This document shows positions 17,793 through 41,250 of a stretch of 55,861 nt of DNA, piece after piece. The DNA is from Candidatus Uhrbacteria bacterium (lineage in GTDB: Bacteria > Patescibacteriota > Patescibacteriia > UBA9934 > GWF2-40-263), in assembly GCA_016235605.1 (NCBI GenBank), contig JACRJW010000023.1, positions 1-55,861 of the forward strand, read 5' to 3'. The notes below the pieces were generated by a model. The model was not told the origin of the DNA. It worked only from the letters and a program-made list of their open reading frames with translations, and ran no database searches. Each line of letters starts with the position of its first letter. The stretch's first letter is position 1. The position numbers and the translations under genes were made by a program.

Positions 17793-18496
17793 CGGTAGTG
17801 GGGTCAGGTCTGGCTATCTCTGAATTCAAATATCCACAACGAATCCTTGCAAGGATAATGGCATCGTTACGTTCCTGCTTCGTTTTTACATCGGCAAAAA
17901 TCTCCTCAAGACTCAAGCGACCAACGATACGTTCATCACGAGGATGCTCCTTGAGTTTTTCTGATCCATTTGTCTTTTCCCAAATCCAATTCACAAACTG
18001 TGGACTCCCCAAAAGAAATCCATTGGTCACCTCATCATAAGGATTTTTGCCACCGATCCCCTCCTCTACAAATGTTCTGTAATCTTGTTGGGCGTCTCGT
18101 TTTTGTTTTGAAAAATTTCCGAGCAACCAATCAACGTACAACCACTCCGGAACACGTCCGGCTCCCGACGTTGCCCGATAACTGCTCCATTTCCAATCTT
18201 TTGGATGTACAACCAAATCTGCACGCACAGCGTTAAGCACGATGTACCTAGCCACTTCAAGAAAATACGTTTCCCTCTCAATGACAAACGCTCTATAACG
18301 CCCTTGAAAGAGATGCCCCACGCGATCGTGTACGACATTAAACCATTGTGAAAAATTCCCATTCAAATCGCGCATCGCGACGGAGAGATTGGCATCGATG
18401 ATCGTGGTCGTTTAAAAAAATATCTTGTTTAGCATTTCCACGGGCGATCACATGATAGAGCGCTCCTGGATATTCAACACGAAGTGGACGGGACAT
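17770..18496 (-). pseudogene. Decayed Y1 (IS200-like / REP-associated RayT-like) transposase
   Basis: An N-terminal fragment from ATG 18496 (MSRPLRVEYPGALYHVIARGNAKQDIF) lies in a different frame from ORF 17770-18375 (GHLFQGRYRAF...WKWSSYRA). The HUH-containing segment expected between them is absent. Confidence 0.6.
17799..17818. repeat. Left arm of a perfect 20-bp inverted repeat flanking the transposase remnant
   Basis: tggggtcaggtctggctatc, preceded by GTAG (17795-17798). It is the exact reverse complement of 18529-18548. Confidence 0.85.
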
Positions 18497-18528
18497 AAAT
18501 TGATATAGTGATCATTTTTGAAAAAGCC

Positions 18529-18548
18529 GATAGCCAGACCTGACCCCA
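18529..18548. repeat. Right arm of the perfect 20-bp inverted repeat flanking the transposase remnant
   Basis: gatagccagacctgacccca, the exact reverse complement of 17799-17818. Confidence 0.85.
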
Positions 18549-20087: not shown

Positions 20088-20183
20088 CCGATCGACGAGC
20101 CTCGCCACGGTGCAGACCCCGTCGGTGCTCGCTGACGCTGCGCTAGCCGGCCGGGGTCAGACACTGTGTCACTCATCGATCGG
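20088..20183 (+). repeat. Rod-like palindromic intergenic element, family 2, copy A
   Basis: A 96-nt imperfect hairpin (outer stem ccgatcga/tcgatcgg). It shares blocks of 35 nt and 17 nt with the reverse complement of 41152-41250. Confidence 0.8.
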
Positions 20184-20190
20184 CACTCGA

Positions 20191-22017
20191 TCACAATTTA
20201 TGCTTCACAACAATGATCTCTCGGGCAGACCGATAATCCTTGATAGCTCGTGGCGTCCAGCCGATGCGTTTCCACGGAATCCGATACATGAACGACGGCA
20301 ACCAAGTAGAAATCCCGCGGCGTCCACCATCTTGTTGAACCGTGAACAGGAACGCGTCGACGAAGACACCCGTATGTCCTTGCTCAAGCATCGTAAGCCA
20401 GAGATCCCAATCTTGAAAGCGTTTGAGGGAAGGATCAAATCCAGGGAAGTGCTCACGCCGGATGAGTGACATGGTGTTGATGTAGTTATTTTTTCGCAGA
20501 GCATTCGCATCGAAAGCGTGTGAGGCAAACCATCGATGCCCCCAGAAAAAACTGGAGTAGGCATACGAAGCTTCTGGATGTGCACTCAGTGCCTGCTCCA
20601 ATGTCTCCAGCATCGTCGGTTCAGCTACCACGTCGGCATCACAAAAAAAGAGCAAGGATCCTGTCGAGCGTCCAAAGCCTGCCATGCGTGCGGCAGGTGC
20701 GCCTTGGTTTTCTTGAAAGTCGAGATAGACGATCCGATCGAGATACGGTTCAAGTCGTGAGCGAGTATCGTCCGTGGAGCCATTGTTAACCACGATGATC
20801 TCGTCTGGGCGCCGTGTCTGAGCAAGGAGAGAATCTAGGCACGCCGTAATCGTCTTGCCATGCTGGTAGGTTGGGATGATGACCGAGATGCCAAGGGGCA
20901 TAGGTTGTAGGGATGAGGTTGTAGGGAGTAGGTAGGCCTTCAACTTTCTGAATTGCTCCTCACAAGTAAATTTCGCGGCGTGGTCGTAGGCTGCGAGTCC
21001 AAGCTTGATTCGAAGTTCTGCGTTGCGCGAGAGCTCAAGAATCTCTTGCGCAAGGTGCTGTTCATCTTGATCTCTCAGCACGATTCCCGTCTCACGATCG
21101 ACCACAGCCTCCGTTACACCTGTGACGTTGGTGGTGATGCTGGGAACGGCGTACTGAGCGGCCTCCAAAAAGACAAGTCCAAATCCTTCCTTGTCGACAG
21201 GATCATTTGAAACGGGCATCACAAACACATCCGCCACGGCGTAGAGCTGGCTTTTTGTTGTGCGGTCGACTCGACCGTGAAAACGCACAGAGTCTTGGAG
21301 TCCAAGTTCACTCACCATTTCTTTCAGTGTTCCTTCCTCTGGTCCCTCGCCTGCGATGTCGTAAACGAAATTCTCCAGCAGGCCTTGGCGGCGCAGGAGT
21401 GACAAGGCGGTGAGCACATGGGCATGGCCCTTACGTTTTACGAGTCGGGAAACGGTCAACAGGTGGAATCGTCCGTCAGATGCAGGTTTGGTCGGCAGAG
21501 GCACCGTGGGCAAACAGGGATACACCACAAGAAGCTCTGTCACTCCAAAAACCTTTGCGACTTCTTGCGCAAGCGCCTGCGAATTACAAACAACGACACG
21601 TGCATATTTCAGAACCTGCGTCGCCATCGCTCTTTTTCGTGCTGACTGCTGTGCAAGCCGAATATCCATCCCATGCACAAACACGACATACGGCGTCTTC
21701 GTCTTTTTCATCGCAACCATGGCGGCTGTTCCAAACGGAAGAACATGACTGGTCAAAATCAATCGGTAACGATCTTGATAGCTTTTGAGGATCCTGACCA
21801 TCTTCCACCAGCGCGGAAAAATCCACTTGAACAAGAGTGGGCTGCGATACACGGGATAGCCAGCGCTGGGATCGGACGACTGCCAGGCAGGATTGGGCAC
21901 TGTGAGAACCTCGATGTCGTCCTTAAAAAAGGTCGCGAGTTCACTCAGGTAGCGCGCCACGCCGCCTTCCATGGGCGGAAAATCTGGAGTGATGAGGAGC
22001 ATTTTTTTTTGGTTCAT
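20191..22017 (-). CDS. Two-domain glycosyltransferase (N-terminal GT4, C-terminal GT2)
   Basis: Start set at MNQKKMLLITPDFPP (ATGA overlap with the flippase stop). GT4 E-x7-E block (EGFGLVFLEAAQYAVP), then GT2 blocks (VIIPTYQHGKT, VVNNGSTDDT, FCDADV). Confidence 0.75.
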   Translation of the reverse strand: MNQKKMLLITPDFPPMEGGVARYLSELATFFKDDIEVLTVPNPAWQSSDPSAGYPVYRSPLLFKWIFPRWWKMVRILKSYQDRYRLILTSHVLPFGTAAMVAMKKTKTPYVVFVHGMDIRLAQQSARKRAMATQVLKYARVVVCNSQALAQEVAKVFGVTELLVVYPCLPTVPLPTKPASDGRFHLLTVSRLVKRKGHAHVLTALSLLRRQGLLENFVYDIAGEGPEEGTLKEMVSELGLQDSVRFHGRVDRTTKSQLYAVADVFVMPVSNDPVDKEGFGLVFLEAAQYAVPSITTNVTGVTEAVVDRETGIVLRDQDEQHLAQEILELSRNAELRIKLGLAAYDHAAKFTCEEQFRKLKAYLLPTTSSLQPMPLGISVIIPTYQHGKTITACLDSLLAQTRRPDEIIVVNNGSTDDTRSRLEPYLDRIVYLDFQENQGAPAARMAGFGRSTGSLLFFCDADVVAEPTMLETLEQALSAHPEASYAYSSFFWGHRWFASHAFDANALRKNNYINTMSLIRREHFPGFDPSLKRFQDWDLWLTMLEQGHTGVFVDAFLFTVQQDGGRRGISTWLPSFMYRIPWKRIGWTPRAIKDYRSAREIIVVKHKL

Positions 22018-29463: not shown

Positions 29464-29474
29464 GAAATGCACTT

Positions 29475-29600
29475 AGACCGTTGCAAAACTCGCGATCTTG
29501 CGACTTGCGGGCCCCGCCACCTCCTCAACGTAATTTCCACTACGTCTCGGAGGCTGGCTTCCCCGCGCATCGCAATCTCATCGAGTTTTGTAACGGTCTC
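29475..29600 (-). repeat. Rod-like structured element, family 1, copy D (126 nt)
   Basis: Read on the minus strand it aligns with 35310-35440 read on the plus strand. Both share the same five-helix rod, with conserved loops and compensatory stem changes. It abuts the alaS stop codon. Confidence 0.85.
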
Positions 29601-33197: not shown

Positions 33198-34370
33198 TTA
33201 GGACGGCCGCATAGGCATTCGTCGCTTGAAGAAGCCTGATCCTAAAGTAGCCAAAGCGATCAAAAGCAGAAGCGACAAAAAAACCACGGCCACCAAGACA
33301 ACGGGATTCTGTAGGCTGAAGAATGGGACACGGACGATCGTCTGTTCGCTCACGGTTTCCCCTGCCGCGTCCTTGAGCGTGAGTGTGGCTGTGTAGGTAC
33401 CGGAAGCGCCGTACGTATGCACCACAACAGACTTGGACGAGGTGACGCCGTCGCCAAAATCCCAGAAAAGGATGCGATCGTCATCAACGGAACCGACCTC
33501 CATAAACGTAAAGGTGTTCCACGCGTCTCGTGTATAGCGAAAAATCGCATTCGGGGAAACGGTCATCTCTGCCGTCTCAAGGCCCTCTTCTGGAGCCGAT
33601 GTTGTCGCTTGCGATCCTTCAACCTCATCAGGCTCATCTGTTGAGGACTCTTGGATCGTTTGCGCGACCTGGGAGATGAGTTCTTTGAAGGTCACACTCG
33701 CGCCCTCCTCTTGTTTCTGCTCTTGTCCCTGCTCCGCTTCCTCTTGTTCGCTCACGCGTTCAGGATCTGTCGGAAACGCATCGCTTTGGTCTTCCACACC
33801 GTCGCCATCGGTATCTGTCATGAGCGAGTTGGTCCCAATCTCTGTTTCAATTTCATCGGAAAGTCCATCGTTATCGTCATCTGTGTCACACAGGTCTCCA
33901 AGCCCATCACCGTCTGAATCCGCTTGCGACGCATCGGCGATCGTTGGACAATCATCGTCTCCATTGGCCACTCCATCGCGATCATCATCGAGGATAGGCT
34001 GGTACAGGGAGGTGATGGCGACATTATTGCTTTCGTCTTCGTCGGTAGGATCTGTCCCTTCTACCTGGGCTTGGATATTGAACGAACTCGACGGGACGAT
34101 AAAATCGATGTAGACCTCTTCCGCGCTTCCATTGGCAAGGACGGAAATGACTTGCGAGGCGCCGACGAGATTCGATCCCTGATAAAATGTGACGTATCCA
34201 GAAACGTCTTCATCACCGATGTTATGCACCGATGCATACAACCGGACTTGATCACCTGCGACGATCGTCTCGCGCGATAAACGGATGTCGTTTTGTTCGA
34301 TTTTCAAATCAGCCTTTGCGAAAGCGATCGAAGGCAACAGGAGCGCAATAAAAATGACCAATACTTTCAT
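33198..34370 (-). CDS. Cell-surface protein with an Asp-rich calcium-binding repeat region and a PKD-like domain
   Basis: Start set at MKVLVIFIALLLPSIAFA (ATGA overlap with corA). Thrombospondin-type-3-like DxDxDG repeats, a PKD-like block (WDFGDGVTS...YTATLTLKD) and a C-terminal TM anchor. Confidence 0.7.
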   Translation of the reverse strand: MKVLVIFIALLLPSIAFAKADLKIEQNDIRLSRETIVAGDQVRLYASVHNIGDEDVSGYVTFYQGSNLVGASQVISVLANGSAEEVYIDFIVPSSSFNIQAQVEGTDPTDEDESNNVAITSLYQPILDDDRDGVANGDDDCPTIADASQADSDGDGLGDLCDTDDDNDGLSDEIETEIGTNSLMTDTDGDGVEDQSDAFPTDPERVSEQEEAEQGQEQKQEEGASVTFKELISQVAQTIQESSTDEPDEVEGSQATTSAPEEGLETAEMTVSPNAIFRYTRDAWNTFTFMEVGSVDDDRILFWDFGDGVTSSKSVVVHTYGASGTYTATLTLKDAAGETVSEQTIVRVPFFSLQNPVVLVAVVFLSLLLLIALATLGSGFFKRRMPMRPS

Positions 34371-35284
34371 AAGCGTTTTCGACGCACTATCCCCATCAGA
34401 ACAAACACCATCCCAAGCATCCCAAGGACATACAGCAGGGTGATGACCTTTGGACTCTCTACAAAGGGAAGCCATGAAGCATTCATCCCGTAAAAACCGG
34501 CAATGAGCGTGGGAACCATCAGCGCCGCAGAGAGAAAGGTGAGGATGGTGATGATCTGATTTGTCTTGTGGGAAATGAGCGCCTCATTCACGTCAAAAAG
34601 CCCATCGATGAGCAGTTTCAAATTATCCGTCGAGAGCCAGATCGTATCGAGGATGTCATGGAGATCATCAAAATACACGAGGATGTCTTCCGGAATAAAC
34701 GACCGTGTCGTATGCCGCAAACTCAAAAGCATACTGCGCTGGGGATCGACGAGATGGCGCAAGAACAACACATTACGCCGAGCATGTCCTAGGTCGACGG
34801 TGAGCCGTTTGTCATGGTTGTGTTCGATGGATTCTTCAAGACGATTCACCTCTTGCGTGAGCTTCCCAATAATATGAAGGGAGCCATGGAACAGGTGCGA
34901 AATGATTCGATACATGGCAAATGAGGTCCCCTTTCCCAGGACGACGGAACGGAATTTTGCGTTCTGGGACATCCGCTCAAAATACGCATCGAGTTCCTGA
35001 AAGGGTTTATAGGTCACGGTGACCAGATCTTCTGTTGAGAGAAAAACATAAACGGGTTCACCGTAGATATTTCCAGAGGTCTCATGGACACTCGGCACGT
35101 GGAACAGGAAAAAAATATAGTGCTTGTATGCGTCCATTTTTGAAATCGGTGATTCGTTTCTGATGTCTTCGTAATCGAGATGATGAAACTTAAATTTTTC
35201 CTGAAGCGCCTTCAGATCTTTTTCGGCAACGCCACTGACGTGATGCCAGTTGACGCCCTTGGCTTCGATGGTTTTTGTCCCCAT
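34367..35284 (-). CDS. corA: CorA-family magnesium/cobalt transporter
   Basis: 305 aa with a YGMN motif (GFYGMN) before the last TM helix. Confidence 0.9.
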   Translation of the reverse strand: MGTKTIEAKGVNWHHVSGVAEKDLKALQEKFKFHHLDYEDIRNESPISKMDAYKHYIFFLFHVPSVHETSGNIYGEPVYVFLSTEDLVTVTYKPFQELDAYFERMSQNAKFRSVVLGKGTSFAMYRIISHLFHGSLHIIGKLTQEVNRLEESIEHNHDKRLTVDLGHARRNVLFLRHLVDPQRSMLLSLRHTTRSFIPEDILVYFDDLHDILDTIWLSTDNLKLLIDGLFDVNEALISHKTNQIITILTFLSAALMVPTLIAGFYGMNASWLPFVESPKVITLLYVLGMLGMVFVLMGIVRRKRL

Positions 35285-35309
35285 ACCTAATGGGTATGCT
35301 CCCCCTTAT

Positions 35310-35440
35310 GAGACCTCTCTCAAAAGTCGATGAGATTGCGGTGCACGGGCTGTCGAGCCCCACGAAACGTAGGTTCTCTACGTAGAGTGGGGTCGACGGG
35401 CGCCCGTAAGCCGCAAGATCACGACTTTTGCAGAGGTCTC
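35310..35440 (+). repeat. Rod-like structured element, family 1, copy C (131 nt)
   Basis: A five-helix hairpin homologous to 29475-29600. It is flanked by TTAT on both sides, and its right arm supplies the last codons and the stop of the GT2 gene. Confidence 0.85.
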
Positions 35441-36135
35441 TTATGACCAAACGTATAGTGGAAATAGTTGTGCCTCACCGGACCCAAAATCGCCAAATGC
35501 ACTTCAGCCAGCAGATACTTGACGGCGATCGTCCATCGACCGTCTCGATCGAGTCGACGGATGGAAACCGGAATCTGTGTGGATCTCAAAAAACCAAATC
35601 GACCTACCGATCGAAACCGTCGTGCGTAATCGTGGTCTTCACAAAACACCACGCTCTCATCAAAGCCCCCAAGCTTGTCGTGCAAATCTTTCCGCACGAT
35701 CATACAAAACCCAGGTGCGTGCGGAAACAACGATCCACAGACATGGACATAGGCATTGTACGCCCTGTGCAAAAAATGATCGATGCGAGCGTGCGAGAGC
35801 GGGACGACATCGCACGTCGCAAGGTCAAATTTTCTCTCGAACATCTCTTTGACCGATTTCTCCAAAAACTCTGGGTCGAGAAGTTCGACGTCTGCATCTA
35901 AAAAAAGCATCAGGTCGGTCGTGGCATGGGCGGCGCCACGGTTGCGGGCAATGGCAACCGGTCCTCCCTCAACCACTTTTGCGCCGAACGACCTCGCGAT
36001 TTCTCGCGTGCGATCGGTTGACTGTGCATCAGCAACAATAATTTCAAACGGTTGAACCGTTTGGTGTTTGATGGACGATAGGAGTCGAGGAAGATACGCT
36101 TCCTCGTCCTTTGTTGGAATGACAATGGTCAACAT
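35419..36135 (-). CDS. Family 2 glycosyltransferase
   Basis: 238 aa with IVIPTKDEE, IIVADAQSTDRT and FLDADV (DxD). Confidence 0.85.
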   Translation of the reverse strand: MLTIVIPTKDEEAYLPRLLSSIKHQTVQPFEIIVADAQSTDRTREIARSFGAKVVEGGPVAIARNRGAAHATTDLMLFLDADVELLDPEFLEKSVKEMFERKFDLATCDVVPLSHARIDHFLHRAYNAYVHVCGSLFPHAPGFCMIVRKDLHDKLGGFDESVVFCEDHDYARRFRSVGRFGFLRSTQIPVSIRRLDRDGRWTIAVKYLLAEVHLAILGPVRHNYFHYTFGHKRPLQKS

Positions 36136-36194
36136 GGGGTTATCTTAACGGTTTTTTTGCACGAGGGCAAACAGTACGATAGAGTGCTGAGGCT

Positions 36195-37325
36195 ATGATG
36201 AGCTGTCCTCAAAAAGAGATCTGCGGATCGTGTTCCTGGTCACACATTCCCTATGACAAACAGTTGAAGGCAAAGCTGTCTGACATCAACGGATCGTTTG
36301 GTTTGAAAAAGCTCAACCTAAAATGCGATACGATCATCTCCTCACCTAAGACTTCGCACTATCGCAACCGAATGGATTTTGCGATCGATTGGGAAGGACG
36401 TGTCGGGCTGAAGGAAAAAGGCAAGTGGTGGAAAGTGATCGACGGCCACGCGTGTTTTCTCGCGGACGAGCGAATCGACGAACTATTTGTCGCTGTCAGG
36501 TCCTGGGCCCAAACGTGTGGTCTCAGTTTCTTCGATCGCAAAGCACACACAGGACTGTTGCGCTATGCGGTGATTCGGTGTACCTCACTGGTCGAAACCA
36601 TGATTACGATAGTCACGAGTGTTCCAAAGTCGACAGAGGCTGCAGATAAGGTCCGATCGAATCTTCTGTGCATCCTCGATACGGCACGACCAACGACCCT
36701 TATGTGGGCGCAGAATTCGACGATCACGGGCGTGAGCTACGGTGACAGACTTGAGACGCTCGCCGGTCCAGGCTTTATCGAGGAAGGAATCAACGGTTTC
36801 CGCTACCGCGTGAGTCCCCAGGCCTTCTTCCAAACAAATTCTTACGCCGCGCCCACCTTGCAAAAAACCGTCCAAGAATTCTGTGGCGACCTCACGAACA
36901 AAACTCTTCTCGATCTTTACTGCGGGACGGGCTTCTTCTCCGTCGCTCTTGCCAATCAGGCAGCTCGCACGATCGGAGTCGAGATGGTTCCAGAAGCCAT
37001 TGTTGACGCCAGAATAAACGCATCTTTGAACGCTTCACGATCCACGTTCTACGATGCACGAACCGAGGAATTCGACTGGGCGGCCTTTGGCGCCGACGTC
37101 GTCATCCTTGACCCGCCTAGAGTTGGGATGCATGATGGTACCCTGCAAGACATTCTTGCTACCAAACCACCCGTGATTGTCTACGTTTCCTGCAATCCCA
37201 AAAACTTTGCTCGCGAGATGGTTCTCCTGCAAAATACCTATCGTGTTGAACAGATGCGTGCCATCGACATGTTCCCTCACACGCCGCATGTGGAGCTTGT
37301 TTCAAAGCTGATAGTTCGTAGGTAG
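36195..37325 (+). CDS. RumA/TrmA-family RNA (uracil-5)-methyltransferase
   Basis: 376 aa with SAM motif DLYCGTGFFS, VILDPPRVGM and the catalytic YVSCNP. Confidence 0.8.
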   Translation: MMSCPQKEICGSCSWSHIPYDKQLKAKLSDINGSFGLKKLNLKCDTIISSPKTSHYRNRMDFAIDWEGRVGLKEKGKWWKVIDGHACFLADERIDELFVAVRSWAQTCGLSFFDRKAHTGLLRYAVIRCTSLVETMITIVTSVPKSTEAADKVRSNLLCILDTARPTTLMWAQNSTITGVSYGDRLETLAGPGFIEEGINGFRYRVSPQAFFQTNSYAAPTLQKTVQEFCGDLTNKTLLDLYCGTGFFSVALANQAARTIGVEMVPEAIVDARINASLNASRSTFYDARTEEFDWAAFGADVVILDPPRVGMHDGTLQDILATKPPVIVYVSCNPKNFAREMVLLQNTYRVEQMRAIDMFPHTPHVELVSKLIVRR

Positions 37326-37382
37326 TAGGTTATAGGGGAAAAACTACTACCTAAAACCTACCACCTACAACCTTCCACCCCT
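37320..37382 (+). other. Hairpin over the methyltransferase stop, followed by a 44-nt G-free leader with a CCTACAACC motif before era
   Basis: 9-bp stem aggtagtag/ctactacct. Positions 37339-37382 contain no G (hand-checked) and include acctaccacctacaacc. Confidence 0.7.
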
Positions 37383-38234
37383 ATGCCCAAATCCGGTTTC
37401 GTTGTCATGATCGGGAGATCCAATGTCGGGAAGTCGACGCTTCTCAATGCTTTAGTTGGATCCAAGATCGCGATCACCACTCCCAAACCGCAAACCACCC
37501 GCCTCCCCATCCAAGGCATCGTCACACGCGACGAAGGCCAGATCGTCTTTATCGACACGCCAGGAGTATTGAAGGGCGCACGCGACATGCTTTCCAAAAA
37601 ACTCGGACAGATGGTGCGCGCCTCCCTCTGTCATGTGGACGTCATTGCCTACGTCGTGGATCCATCGCGCGAGATCGGCGACGAAGAACGCGAAGTCATG
37701 CGACTCATTGAATCCATCGACAAGCCAAAAATTCTTGTCATCAACAAAATGGATCTGGACAAAAAACCCTTTCTTGATTTTTACAAGGACCTTGCTGCAT
37801 ATTTTACCAGCGTGATCGAAGTCTCCGCACTGCGCGGGACACAGGTAGGACAATTGATCCAGGAGATCTTCACTCATCTGCCTGAGGGGGAGGCGTACTA
37901 CCCCGAGGACCAACTCACCAACGTGCCAAACAAATTTTGGCTCGCAGAACTCATCCGTGAAAAACTCTTTTTGCGCCTGCGTCAAGAAGTCCCATACACG
38001 ACCCACGTCGAGGTCGAAGATGTTGATGAACGCGAGAACGGCGTGATCTACATCAAGGCGACAATCTTTACGACCGAGGAACGCTACAAACGGATGATCA
38101 TCGGCGCCAAGGGGCAAGGCATCAAAGAAATCGGCCAAAGCGTCCGCCACGAACTCGAACTCGCCATGGACGCCAAAGTCTTTCTCGATCTCACGGTAGA
38201 CGTGGATCCACACTGGATGCAGCGATACGAATAA
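37383..38234 (+). CDS. era: GTPase Era
   Basis: 283 aa with G1 GRSNVGKST, G3 DTPG, G4 NKMD and a C-terminal KH domain. Confidence 0.93.
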   Translation: MPKSGFVVMIGRSNVGKSTLLNALVGSKIAITTPKPQTTRLPIQGIVTRDEGQIVFIDTPGVLKGARDMLSKKLGQMVRASLCHVDVIAYVVDPSREIGDEEREVMRLIESIDKPKILVINKMDLDKKPFLDFYKDLAAYFTSVIEVSALRGTQVGQLIQEIFTHLPEGEAYYPEDQLTNVPNKFWLAELIREKLFLRLRQEVPYTTHVEVEDVDERENGVIYIKATIFTTEERYKRMIIGAKGQGIKEIGQSVRHELELAMDAKVFLDLTVDVDPHWMQRYE

Positions 38235-39444: not shown

Positions 39445-39489
39445 AGAGAAAGGTCGTAGGTTGTAGGTGTTAGGTGATAGAATCTTAGC

Positions 39490-41151: not shown

Positions 41152-41250
41152 ACACGTGAGTGGCACGGCGTCTGGTTCCGGCCGGCTAGCGCAGTCGAGC
41201 TCAGCTCGACGAGCACCGACGGAGCCTGCGCCGTGACGAGGCTCACGTGT
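41152..41250 (-). repeat. Rod-like palindromic intergenic element, family 2, copy B
   Basis: Its reverse complement aligns with 20088-20183. It carries an extra internal hairpin, gtcgagc-tga-gctcgac. The outer stem acacgtgag/ctcacgtgt overlaps the HD gene stop. Confidence 0.8.

Follow-up and report, generated by a model that had tools for sequence, protein, structure and literature searches.

We found that a 131-bp block between a family-2 glycosyltransferase gene (GT2) and the Mg2+ channel gene corA of a Candidatus Uhrbacteria bacterium is very probably an IS5-type MITE whose insertion at the 3′ terminus of GT2 duplicated the tetranucleotide TTAT; the kind of transposase that moved it and any effect on corA expression are inferred. 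The window analyzed here is a 55,861-nt stretch of DNA, and its source genome (CPR/Patescibacteria) amounts to 1.21 Mb in 111 contigs, with 53% G+C.

The block occupies positions 35310..35440, starts with GAGACC and ends with GGTCTC, and a direct reading of the sequence places TTAT on both sides (35306..35309 and 35441..35444), as the earlier note had reported. It lies in the family-consensus orientation on the plus strand and is an imperfect palindrome over its whole length. An alignment of 24 copies places a left terminal inverted repeat (TIR) of the IS5-family type (GAGACCTCTCTCAAAAGTCG) at 35310..35329 on the plus strand and a right TIR (GAGACCTCTGCAAAAGTCG on the minus strand) at 35422..35440, and the pattern GAGACC..TG.AAAA.TCG is kept at both ends of the 24 copies. 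At 131 bp the element falls within the 50-1000 bp of MITEs, and it is non-coding, with no ORF of its own and no Rfam match. Both neighboring genes are on the minus strand: the GT2 gene (35419..36135; 238 aa; Pfam Glycos_transf_2, 1.8e-25) and, downstream of the insertion, corA (34367..35284; 305 aa; Pfam CorA, 8.4e-44). The GT2 frame runs ...TTT GGT CAT AA|G AGA CCT CTG CAA AAG TCG TGA, and the protein ends ...FGHKRPLQKS. The right-hand TTAT falls, on this strand, within the codons CAT AAG; the element contributes part of the K codon, the six codons RPLQKS, which are encoded by the right TIR, and the stop codon. The ORF list puts this TGA at 35419..35421, inside the right arm of the element, consistent with the previous claim that the right arm encodes the last GT2 residues and the stop. 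The coordinates of corA likewise agree with the claim that only 25 nt (35285..35309) lie between the element and the corA ATG.

The orthologous junctions of relatives bore out the proposal that a MITE-like mobile hairpin had inserted in the GT2 3′ end with duplication of TTAT. The junction in Candidatus Uhrbacteria nzgw366 (G003), whose CorA protein is 89% identical to that of the window, reads ...tttggtcATAAgggggagcacacaccgtccccgtagctATG / ...cattacacgtttggtcATAAgggggagcacacaccgtccccgtagctATGggg, with a single ATAA (TTAT on the plus strand of the window) and no element. Its GT2 tail is ...FGHKGEHTPSP*, as against KRPLQKS* in the window, and its TAG lies 2 nt before the corA ATG. The junction is also empty in G001, where GT2 ends ...FGHSSKKDVR*, 6 nt before corA. 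An element-free junction in the window's own genome would be ...CCCCTTAT joined directly to GACCAAAC; the joined flanks read ...TTT GGT CAT AAG GGG GAG CAT ACC CAT TAG gt ATG and encode ...FGHKGEHTH*, homologous to the G003 tail and with a stop 2 nt before corA. Since joining the flanks restores a frame homologous to that of G003, the 25-nt spacer (35285..35309, minus strand; AA GGG GAG CAT ACC CAT TAG gt, or ..K G E H T H *) is a leftover of the former GT2 terminus, stranded by the insertion. The G001 contig that carries the junction (L002; G001:C14, CAYHRJ010000014.1) is labeled "uncultured Gammaproteobacteria bacterium," but, judged by its GT2-corA locus and its kinship at the genome level, it belongs to the genus of the window's genome, and the label is probably wrong.

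No copy of the element was found at the GT2 loci of any of 13 relatives, representing 13 genera or lineages. The adjacency of GT2 and corA is kept in 7 of the 13 (G001, G002, G003, G008, G010, G012, and G014), where the GT2 stop lies anywhere from 26 nt inside corA to 158 nt upstream of it, and within 8 nt or overlapping in 6 of the 7; the corresponding distance in the window's genome is 134 nt. The 158-nt spacer belongs to G010 (L082, G010:C9), compared with -26 to +8 nt in the other relatives, and shows no match to the MITE family of the window. The conserved core of GT2 ends ...(F/H)Y(T/S/Q)FGH, and beyond it both length and sequence vary among the relatives. The element-encoded tail thus replaces a freely varying part of the protein, a change that is probably neutral.

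The element belongs to a large repeat family, with about 25 full copies and a few fragments identified in the 1.2-Mb genome by BLAST and iterated nhmmer. A repeat finder (seed 12, minimum 40 nt) missed the family, since its copies differ by indels, and the nhmmer iteration recovered them. The window contains two copies, the second of which, of a different subfamily and in the opposite orientation, lies at 29474..29600 and abuts the alaS stop codon; its site is empty in G003, G002, and G001. The copies form subfamilies, and the one at 35310..35440 is 93 to 95% identical to four others, on contigs C56, C53, C44, and C10, which places it in a young group. The insertion is recent, given this identity to the four sister copies and its being private to the window's genome. 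Whole-element BLAST matches were present in 16 of 41 related genomes, with 2 to 34 matches in each congener. Of 151 sampled genomes of the order, 68 contained the 18-nt terminus pattern, mostly within one taxonomic family (44 of 65), and a control pattern gave near-zero counts.

The family also shows target-site duplications far beyond this single junction. With copy ends set uniformly from the profile before counting, exact abutting direct repeats of at least 4 nt were found at 7 of the 24 copies (TTAT, CATA, TGAT, TATC, TCAG, ACTTC, and AGGTTC), whereas over 20,000 permutations of left and right flanks the number averaged 0.37 and did not exceed 4 (P<5e-5). In G001, G003, and G004 together, 27 copies were inspected, of which about half had exact repeats of 3 to 5 nt (for example, CATG, ACTA, TGTA, TAGA, TATG, CCTT, TCGCT, ACTGT, and ATAGT), and across the family the duplication measures 3 to 6 bp, mostly 4. 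Empty sites were sought with the concatenated joined flanks of the 24 copies against four congeners, each flank being aligned locally and separately, in place of a MAFFT pairwise alignment of filled and empty sites that had put the large gap in the wrong place. At about nine further sites of the window's genome, the congener alignments cross the junction uninterrupted, at the element-free length. The site at C34:14692 is filled in G001 (probably in G004 too) and empty in G002 and G003, marking an older, common insertion. The duplications, together with the presence/absence polymorphism among related genomes, point to cut-and-paste or copy-in transposition with staggered target cleavage; numerous dispersed copies, such polymorphism, and a duplicated target that is single at the empty site are what is expected of a MITE. 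The copies showed no orientation bias, with 11 antisense and 7 sense to transcription among those between codirectional genes, and the consensus strand on the G-rich strand, by GC skew, in 11 of 24.

Several other features of the copies were observed. A long ORF has its stop codon inside the element or within 8 nt of its end in at least 15 of the 24 copies, among them C53:10288, C56:20489, C111:29474, C16:12076, C54:15516, and C53:5196, and at C109:9500 an ORF extends 62 nt into the element; this placement could reflect a preference for AT-rich or stop-codon-like targets, or survival only in tiny intergenic gaps. A truncated copy, consisting of a solo left arm of about 36 nt (G000:C13:12337-12370), is located some 85 nt upstream of a pair of tRNA genes, and a 43-nt mini-palindrome (G000:C60:1669-1711) consists of two facing MITE termini (AGACCTCTGAAAAACGCG) with nothing between them. 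Longer variants of 164 to 238 bp have the same ends with extra interior sequence (G002:C5:94843-95080, G004:C11:8348-8511, G004:C12:32528-32723, and G004:C55:3809-3972), and G011 has 21 terminus matches and no BLAST match to the interior of the window's element. From the longer variants and the G011 termini, it follows that several MITE families have these IS5-type ends.

The 18-nt termini of the element, GAGACCTCTGCAAAAxTC, also bound full-length IS5-family elements of 1,213 to 1,338 bp in other genera of the same taxonomic family. These were located by scanning fetched DDE_Tnp_1 (PF01609) loci for the MITE terminus, DDE_Tnp_1 matches being present in 18 of 70 other genomes of that taxonomic family. 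The element in G011 (L054:1313-2527, about 1.2 kb) has ends GAGACCTCTGAAAAAATC / GAGACCTCTGCAAAACTC, a 4-bp duplication (AATA), and an intact 334-aa transposase with Pfam DUF772 and DDE_Tnp_1 domains, which scores 265 bits over the full NCBIfam model NF033581, "IS5 family transposase" (cut-off, 140). The one in G017 (L059:1308-2621, about 1.3 kb) has ends of the same type, a 5-bp duplication (TGAGA), and a 376-aa transposase ORF, also a DUF772 and DDE_Tnp_1 gene, that is a more distant IS5/IS1182-like relative below both cut-offs; G017 holds both this full-length IS and the MITE family of the window. A degraded 1,338-bp copy in G150 (L072) has a frameshifted transposase gene and no clear duplication, and in G019 and G090 solo ends adjoin truncated transposase genes. 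The MITE thus has its TIRs in common with full-length IS elements (L054 and L059), and its duplications, mostly of 4 bp, are like the 4 and 5 bp of the IS. The TIR of ISNme1, of the IS5 family, is GAGACCTTTGCAAAA (PMC4596501), and several copies in the window's genome match it letter for letter.

IS5-family elements with identical ends are the likely source of mobility, to judge from the sequence comparison. No transposase was found inside or adjoining the copies, and a PF01609 search found no DDE_Tnp_1 gene in the window's genome or its four congeners (G000 to G004). Repeats are often unassembled in MAGs. The parent IS may have been lost from the genus, or it may be missing from the draft assemblies.

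In the mechanism that we propose, the element is a nonautonomous DNA transposon of about 130 bp, with IS5-family TIRs around a conserved, self-complementary interior. Before the insertion, the GT2 product had the tail ...FGHKGEHTH*, and only 2 nt lay between the TAG and the corA ATG, in a tightly packed and probably translationally coupled pair. A DDE transposase acting in trans would have cut a staggered break at TTAT near the GT2 end, the element would have been inserted, and repair would have doubled the TTAT. GT2 now reads RPLQKS to a TGA within the element, its old tail has become a corA leader of 25 nt, and any read-through transcript of GT2 and corA would include the hairpin of about 51 bp. 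Some observations fit the IS5-MITE account less well. No DDE_Tnp_1 gene was found in the window's genome or its congeners despite the 2 to 34 BLAST matches that each contains; the likeness to the IS is confined to the outer 18 nt, the conserved interior of about 95 nt being unrelated; the length of the duplication is not fixed; and the structural features of the interior described below, namely, compensatory changes and an asymmetry of mispairs, are not ones that a plain transposase substrate would need or that DDE transposition alone would account for.

The element folds as one long hairpin with about 51 predicted pairs on either strand. The earlier note had described a rod of roughly 45 bp; the single long hairpin was recovered, at a slightly larger size. 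The folding energies were -86.9 (minus strand) and -89.2 kcal/mol (z = -8.5 and -8.3, respectively, versus dinucleotide shuffles). For a 42-pair consensus structure, 97.4% of the cells of the 24-copy alignment were standard pairs, and changes on both sides were seen in 22 of the 42 pairs. The covariation score was 0.40, compared with 0.15 for shuffled partners and at most 0.09 for slid partners. These two-sided compensatory changes indicate that the hairpin shape has been maintained during sequence change, something beyond the needs of a bare transposase substrate. G-T pairs are much more numerous than A-C mismatches on the consensus strand (about 98 and about 9 cells, respectively), most of the G-T pairs falling at four inherited positions. 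The fold may help two ends only 130 bp apart to meet; alternatively, the RNA duplex may be tolerated or put to use by the host. That the interior hairpin is more than a passenger, either meeting a single-stranded or cruciform need of an IS5-type transposase or providing the host with an RNA duplex as an RNase III site or 3′-end protector, we put forward only tentatively and consider rather unlikely.

The structure raises the question of whether the element could instead be a REPIN-like hairpin repeat moved on single-stranded DNA by a RAYT/IS200-type Y1 (HUH) tyrosine transposase. Such an origin would fit the whole-element hairpin, its strong covariation, and the strand asymmetry of G-T and A-C, and Y1_Tnp homologues of about 290 to 300 aa are present in G000 (one cut to 158 aa), G001, G003, and G004; a copy of the element lies about 95 nt from the 3′ end of one G003 Y1 gene, and copies in G004 lie 1.1 to 1.2 kb away. 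However, the genes in G001, at G000:C56, and at G003:C3 lack a copy within 3 kb (the nearest, at G003:C3, is 2.9 kb away), G002 has copies of the element and no Y1 match, and there is no orientation bias with respect to GC skew. Y1 transposases (IS200/IS605 and RAYTs) produce no duplications, whereas the element has flanking direct repeats of variable sequence far above chance, with one repeat copy at the empty site, and its termini are IS5-family TIRs present on intact IS5-family elements. We therefore consider a Y1-driven origin very improbable, and the family was not assigned to the REPIN/RAYT class, given its duplications and the lack of consistent flanking of Y1_Tnp genes by copies. The opposite history, which the earlier note had left open, would make the element ancestral at the GT2-corA junction, where it defined how GT2 originally ended, and would require its precise loss from the relatives; this is barely conceivable. 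Precise excision of elements between short direct repeats can happen, but the GT2 loci of all 13 relatives are free of the element, and the joined flanks restore the open frame GEHTH*, homologous to GEHTPSP* of G003, as expected of a recent insertion; moreover, the sister copies are 93 to 95% identical, while the flanking genes are only 72 to 89% identical to their orthologues. The distribution and the reconstructed frame contradict such a loss.

The remaining alternative concerns what the element does rather than where it came from, and it would be a possible consequence of the insertion and not a different origin. In this case, RNase III would cleave the duplex of about 51 bp in the GT2-corA transcript, or exonucleases or polymerase would stall at it, and the hairpin would uncouple the expression of GT2 and corA as an attenuator, processing site, or stabilizer. 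The duplex on the transcribed minus strand is long and stable, its shape covaries across subfamilies, RNase III is encoded in the genome, and the insertion destroyed a 2-nt stop-start junction; the GT2 stop now falls within the 5′ arm, and 25 nt lie between the 3′ arm and the start of corA. On the other hand, a scan of both strands of 35310..35440 found no sigma-70-like promoter and no terminator-like site, and no U-tract follows the stem on either strand (the minus strand continues as AUAAGGGGG), unlike an intrinsic terminator or attenuator with a G+C-rich stem and a U-tract. An Rfam search of 34000..37000 at E<=1 gave no match. Copies lie in both directions relative to transcription, as noted above, and the transcript at this locus bears the strand that turns the conserved G-U pairs of the family into A-C mismatches. 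The junction is free of the element in every relative examined, so corA does not need it, and the element is not a conserved corA regulator. The suggestion of a dedicated corA attenuator or processing site was therefore not upheld for what is a private insertion of a family found at about 24 unrelated sites in both orientations, without promoter or terminator signals. An effect of the duplex on expression is a real but doubtful possibility; by analogy with other hairpin elements, processing or changed stability of the GT2-corA message is plausible.

A few further candidates were considered and set aside. An IS6/IS26 origin was rejected: PF13610 matches were below threshold and corresponded to an IS481-like rve transposase on G000:C43, and IS6 duplications are 8 bp, unlike those of the element; the IS6/IS26 TIR is GGCACTGTTGCAAA. 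This 2.7-kb contig (G000:C43:1-2744) carries, in order, a 3′ segment of an IS30-like transposase gene and an intact 353-aa IS481-like (rve) transposase, whose element has 28-nt TGT... inverted repeats (TGTCCAGGTTCAGATACATATGAGACAG) unrelated to the MITE ends; its ownership is uncertain, the genome bin being rated 8% contaminated. A hammerhead-like core (GTC GATGAG ... CGAAAC) lacks the CUGAUGA box and matched no Rfam hammerhead model. Small GIY-YIG genes (an Ssn-like lead) are present in all five genomes, G000 to G004. The Y1_Tnp genes (L023 to L027; G000:C56:10000-10480), one to three per genome of the genus, begin MSRPLR(V/I)EYPGALYHV..., and one of them is syntenic beside a GT4 gene in G003 and G000.

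Several known repeats are comparable with the element. Imperfect palindromes of about 127 bp are also found as ERIC and the enterobacterial and Yersinia palindromic intergenic repeats, which lie in transcribed intergenic regions in either orientation and differ in copy number among relatives. These repeats differ from the element in sequence and termini, the Rfam search gave no match, and to our knowledge they have no IS5 parent. Rickettsia palindromic elements (RPE) are likewise mobile palindromes that enter coding sequence and change the protein without destroying the gene, but RPE insert in frame within genes and add an internal peptide, whereas the Uhrbacteria element replaces only a variable C-terminal tail and supplies the stop. 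Correia elements have a TA duplication, Correia-type TIRs, and promoter and IHF sites. The element of the window resembles the Neisseria Correia elements (CREE/NEMIS) in being a whole-length palindrome of about 100 to 155 bp, situated between genes or at their ends; Correia elements are cotranscribed with these genes. It was not counted among the Correia elements, because of its 3- to 6-bp duplications of varied sequence, its IS5-type TIRs, and its lack of a promoter-like site. PMC2649163 describes Correia elements as RNase III substrates, either cut or protected, that change the expression of neighboring genes.

Also among the closest counterparts are BrickBuilt, MITE293, and MITE700 of Porphyromonas gingivalis and the Neisseria ATR element, with termini GAGACCTTTGCA(AAA) (PMC4596501). 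The Porphyromonas MITEs are IS5 derived, with the TIR GAGACCTTTGCA, and ATR has been proposed as an ISNme1 derivative (PMC4596501). As in these elements, the resemblance to the parent is limited to the TIRs ("type II" MITE), with no transposase remnant, the flanking duplications are short and variable, and there are tens of copies per genome. Unlike them, the element of the window resides in an uncultured CPR/Patescibacteria host with a 1.2-Mb genome, has a covarying whole-length hairpin as its interior instead of tandem repeats or AT-rich DNA, and has a parent IS that was not found in the same genus. IS5-derived MITEs are a well-known kind of element, and a rewritten gene end and a split operon junction are well-known consequences of insertion. 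What the present analysis adds is a clean empty site for this copy, a reconstruction of how GT2 originally ended, statistics on the duplications, and IS5-family elements whose ends are identical. We found no paper on MITEs in the Uhrbacteria lineage in open-access full text, and the family appears to be undescribed there.

The window also contains repeats of other kinds. Runs of (GTAGGTT)-like heptads and their complement form an imperfect palindrome at 37306..37379, between a tRNA U5-methyltransferase-like gene, which ends at 37325, and era, which starts at 37383, and related heptad runs occur at 20893..20931 and 39449..39480. A second, unrelated repeat family is represented at 20097..20175 and 41157..41244 by inverted arms of about 80 nt that lie 21 kb apart and are 84 to 89% complementary. 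Inverted repeats of 35 nt, 80% complementary, surround a 680-nt stretch at 17799..17833 and 18514..18548.

The GT2-corA junction offers a textbook-clean CPR case of a MITE that rewrites a gene end and splits a tight gene pair; filled and empty sites are both available for this one insertion, as is the ancestral reading frame in reconstructed form. The case also connects a hairpin repeat that is widespread in Uhrbacteria with a concrete parent, namely, an IS5-family IS with identical ends, and it calls for caution in annotation, as C termini and stop codons beside these repeats are element derived. If the reading in which the host uses the RNA duplex is true, the family would be portable punctuation between once translationally coupled genes in ultra-small genomes, here GT2 and corA.
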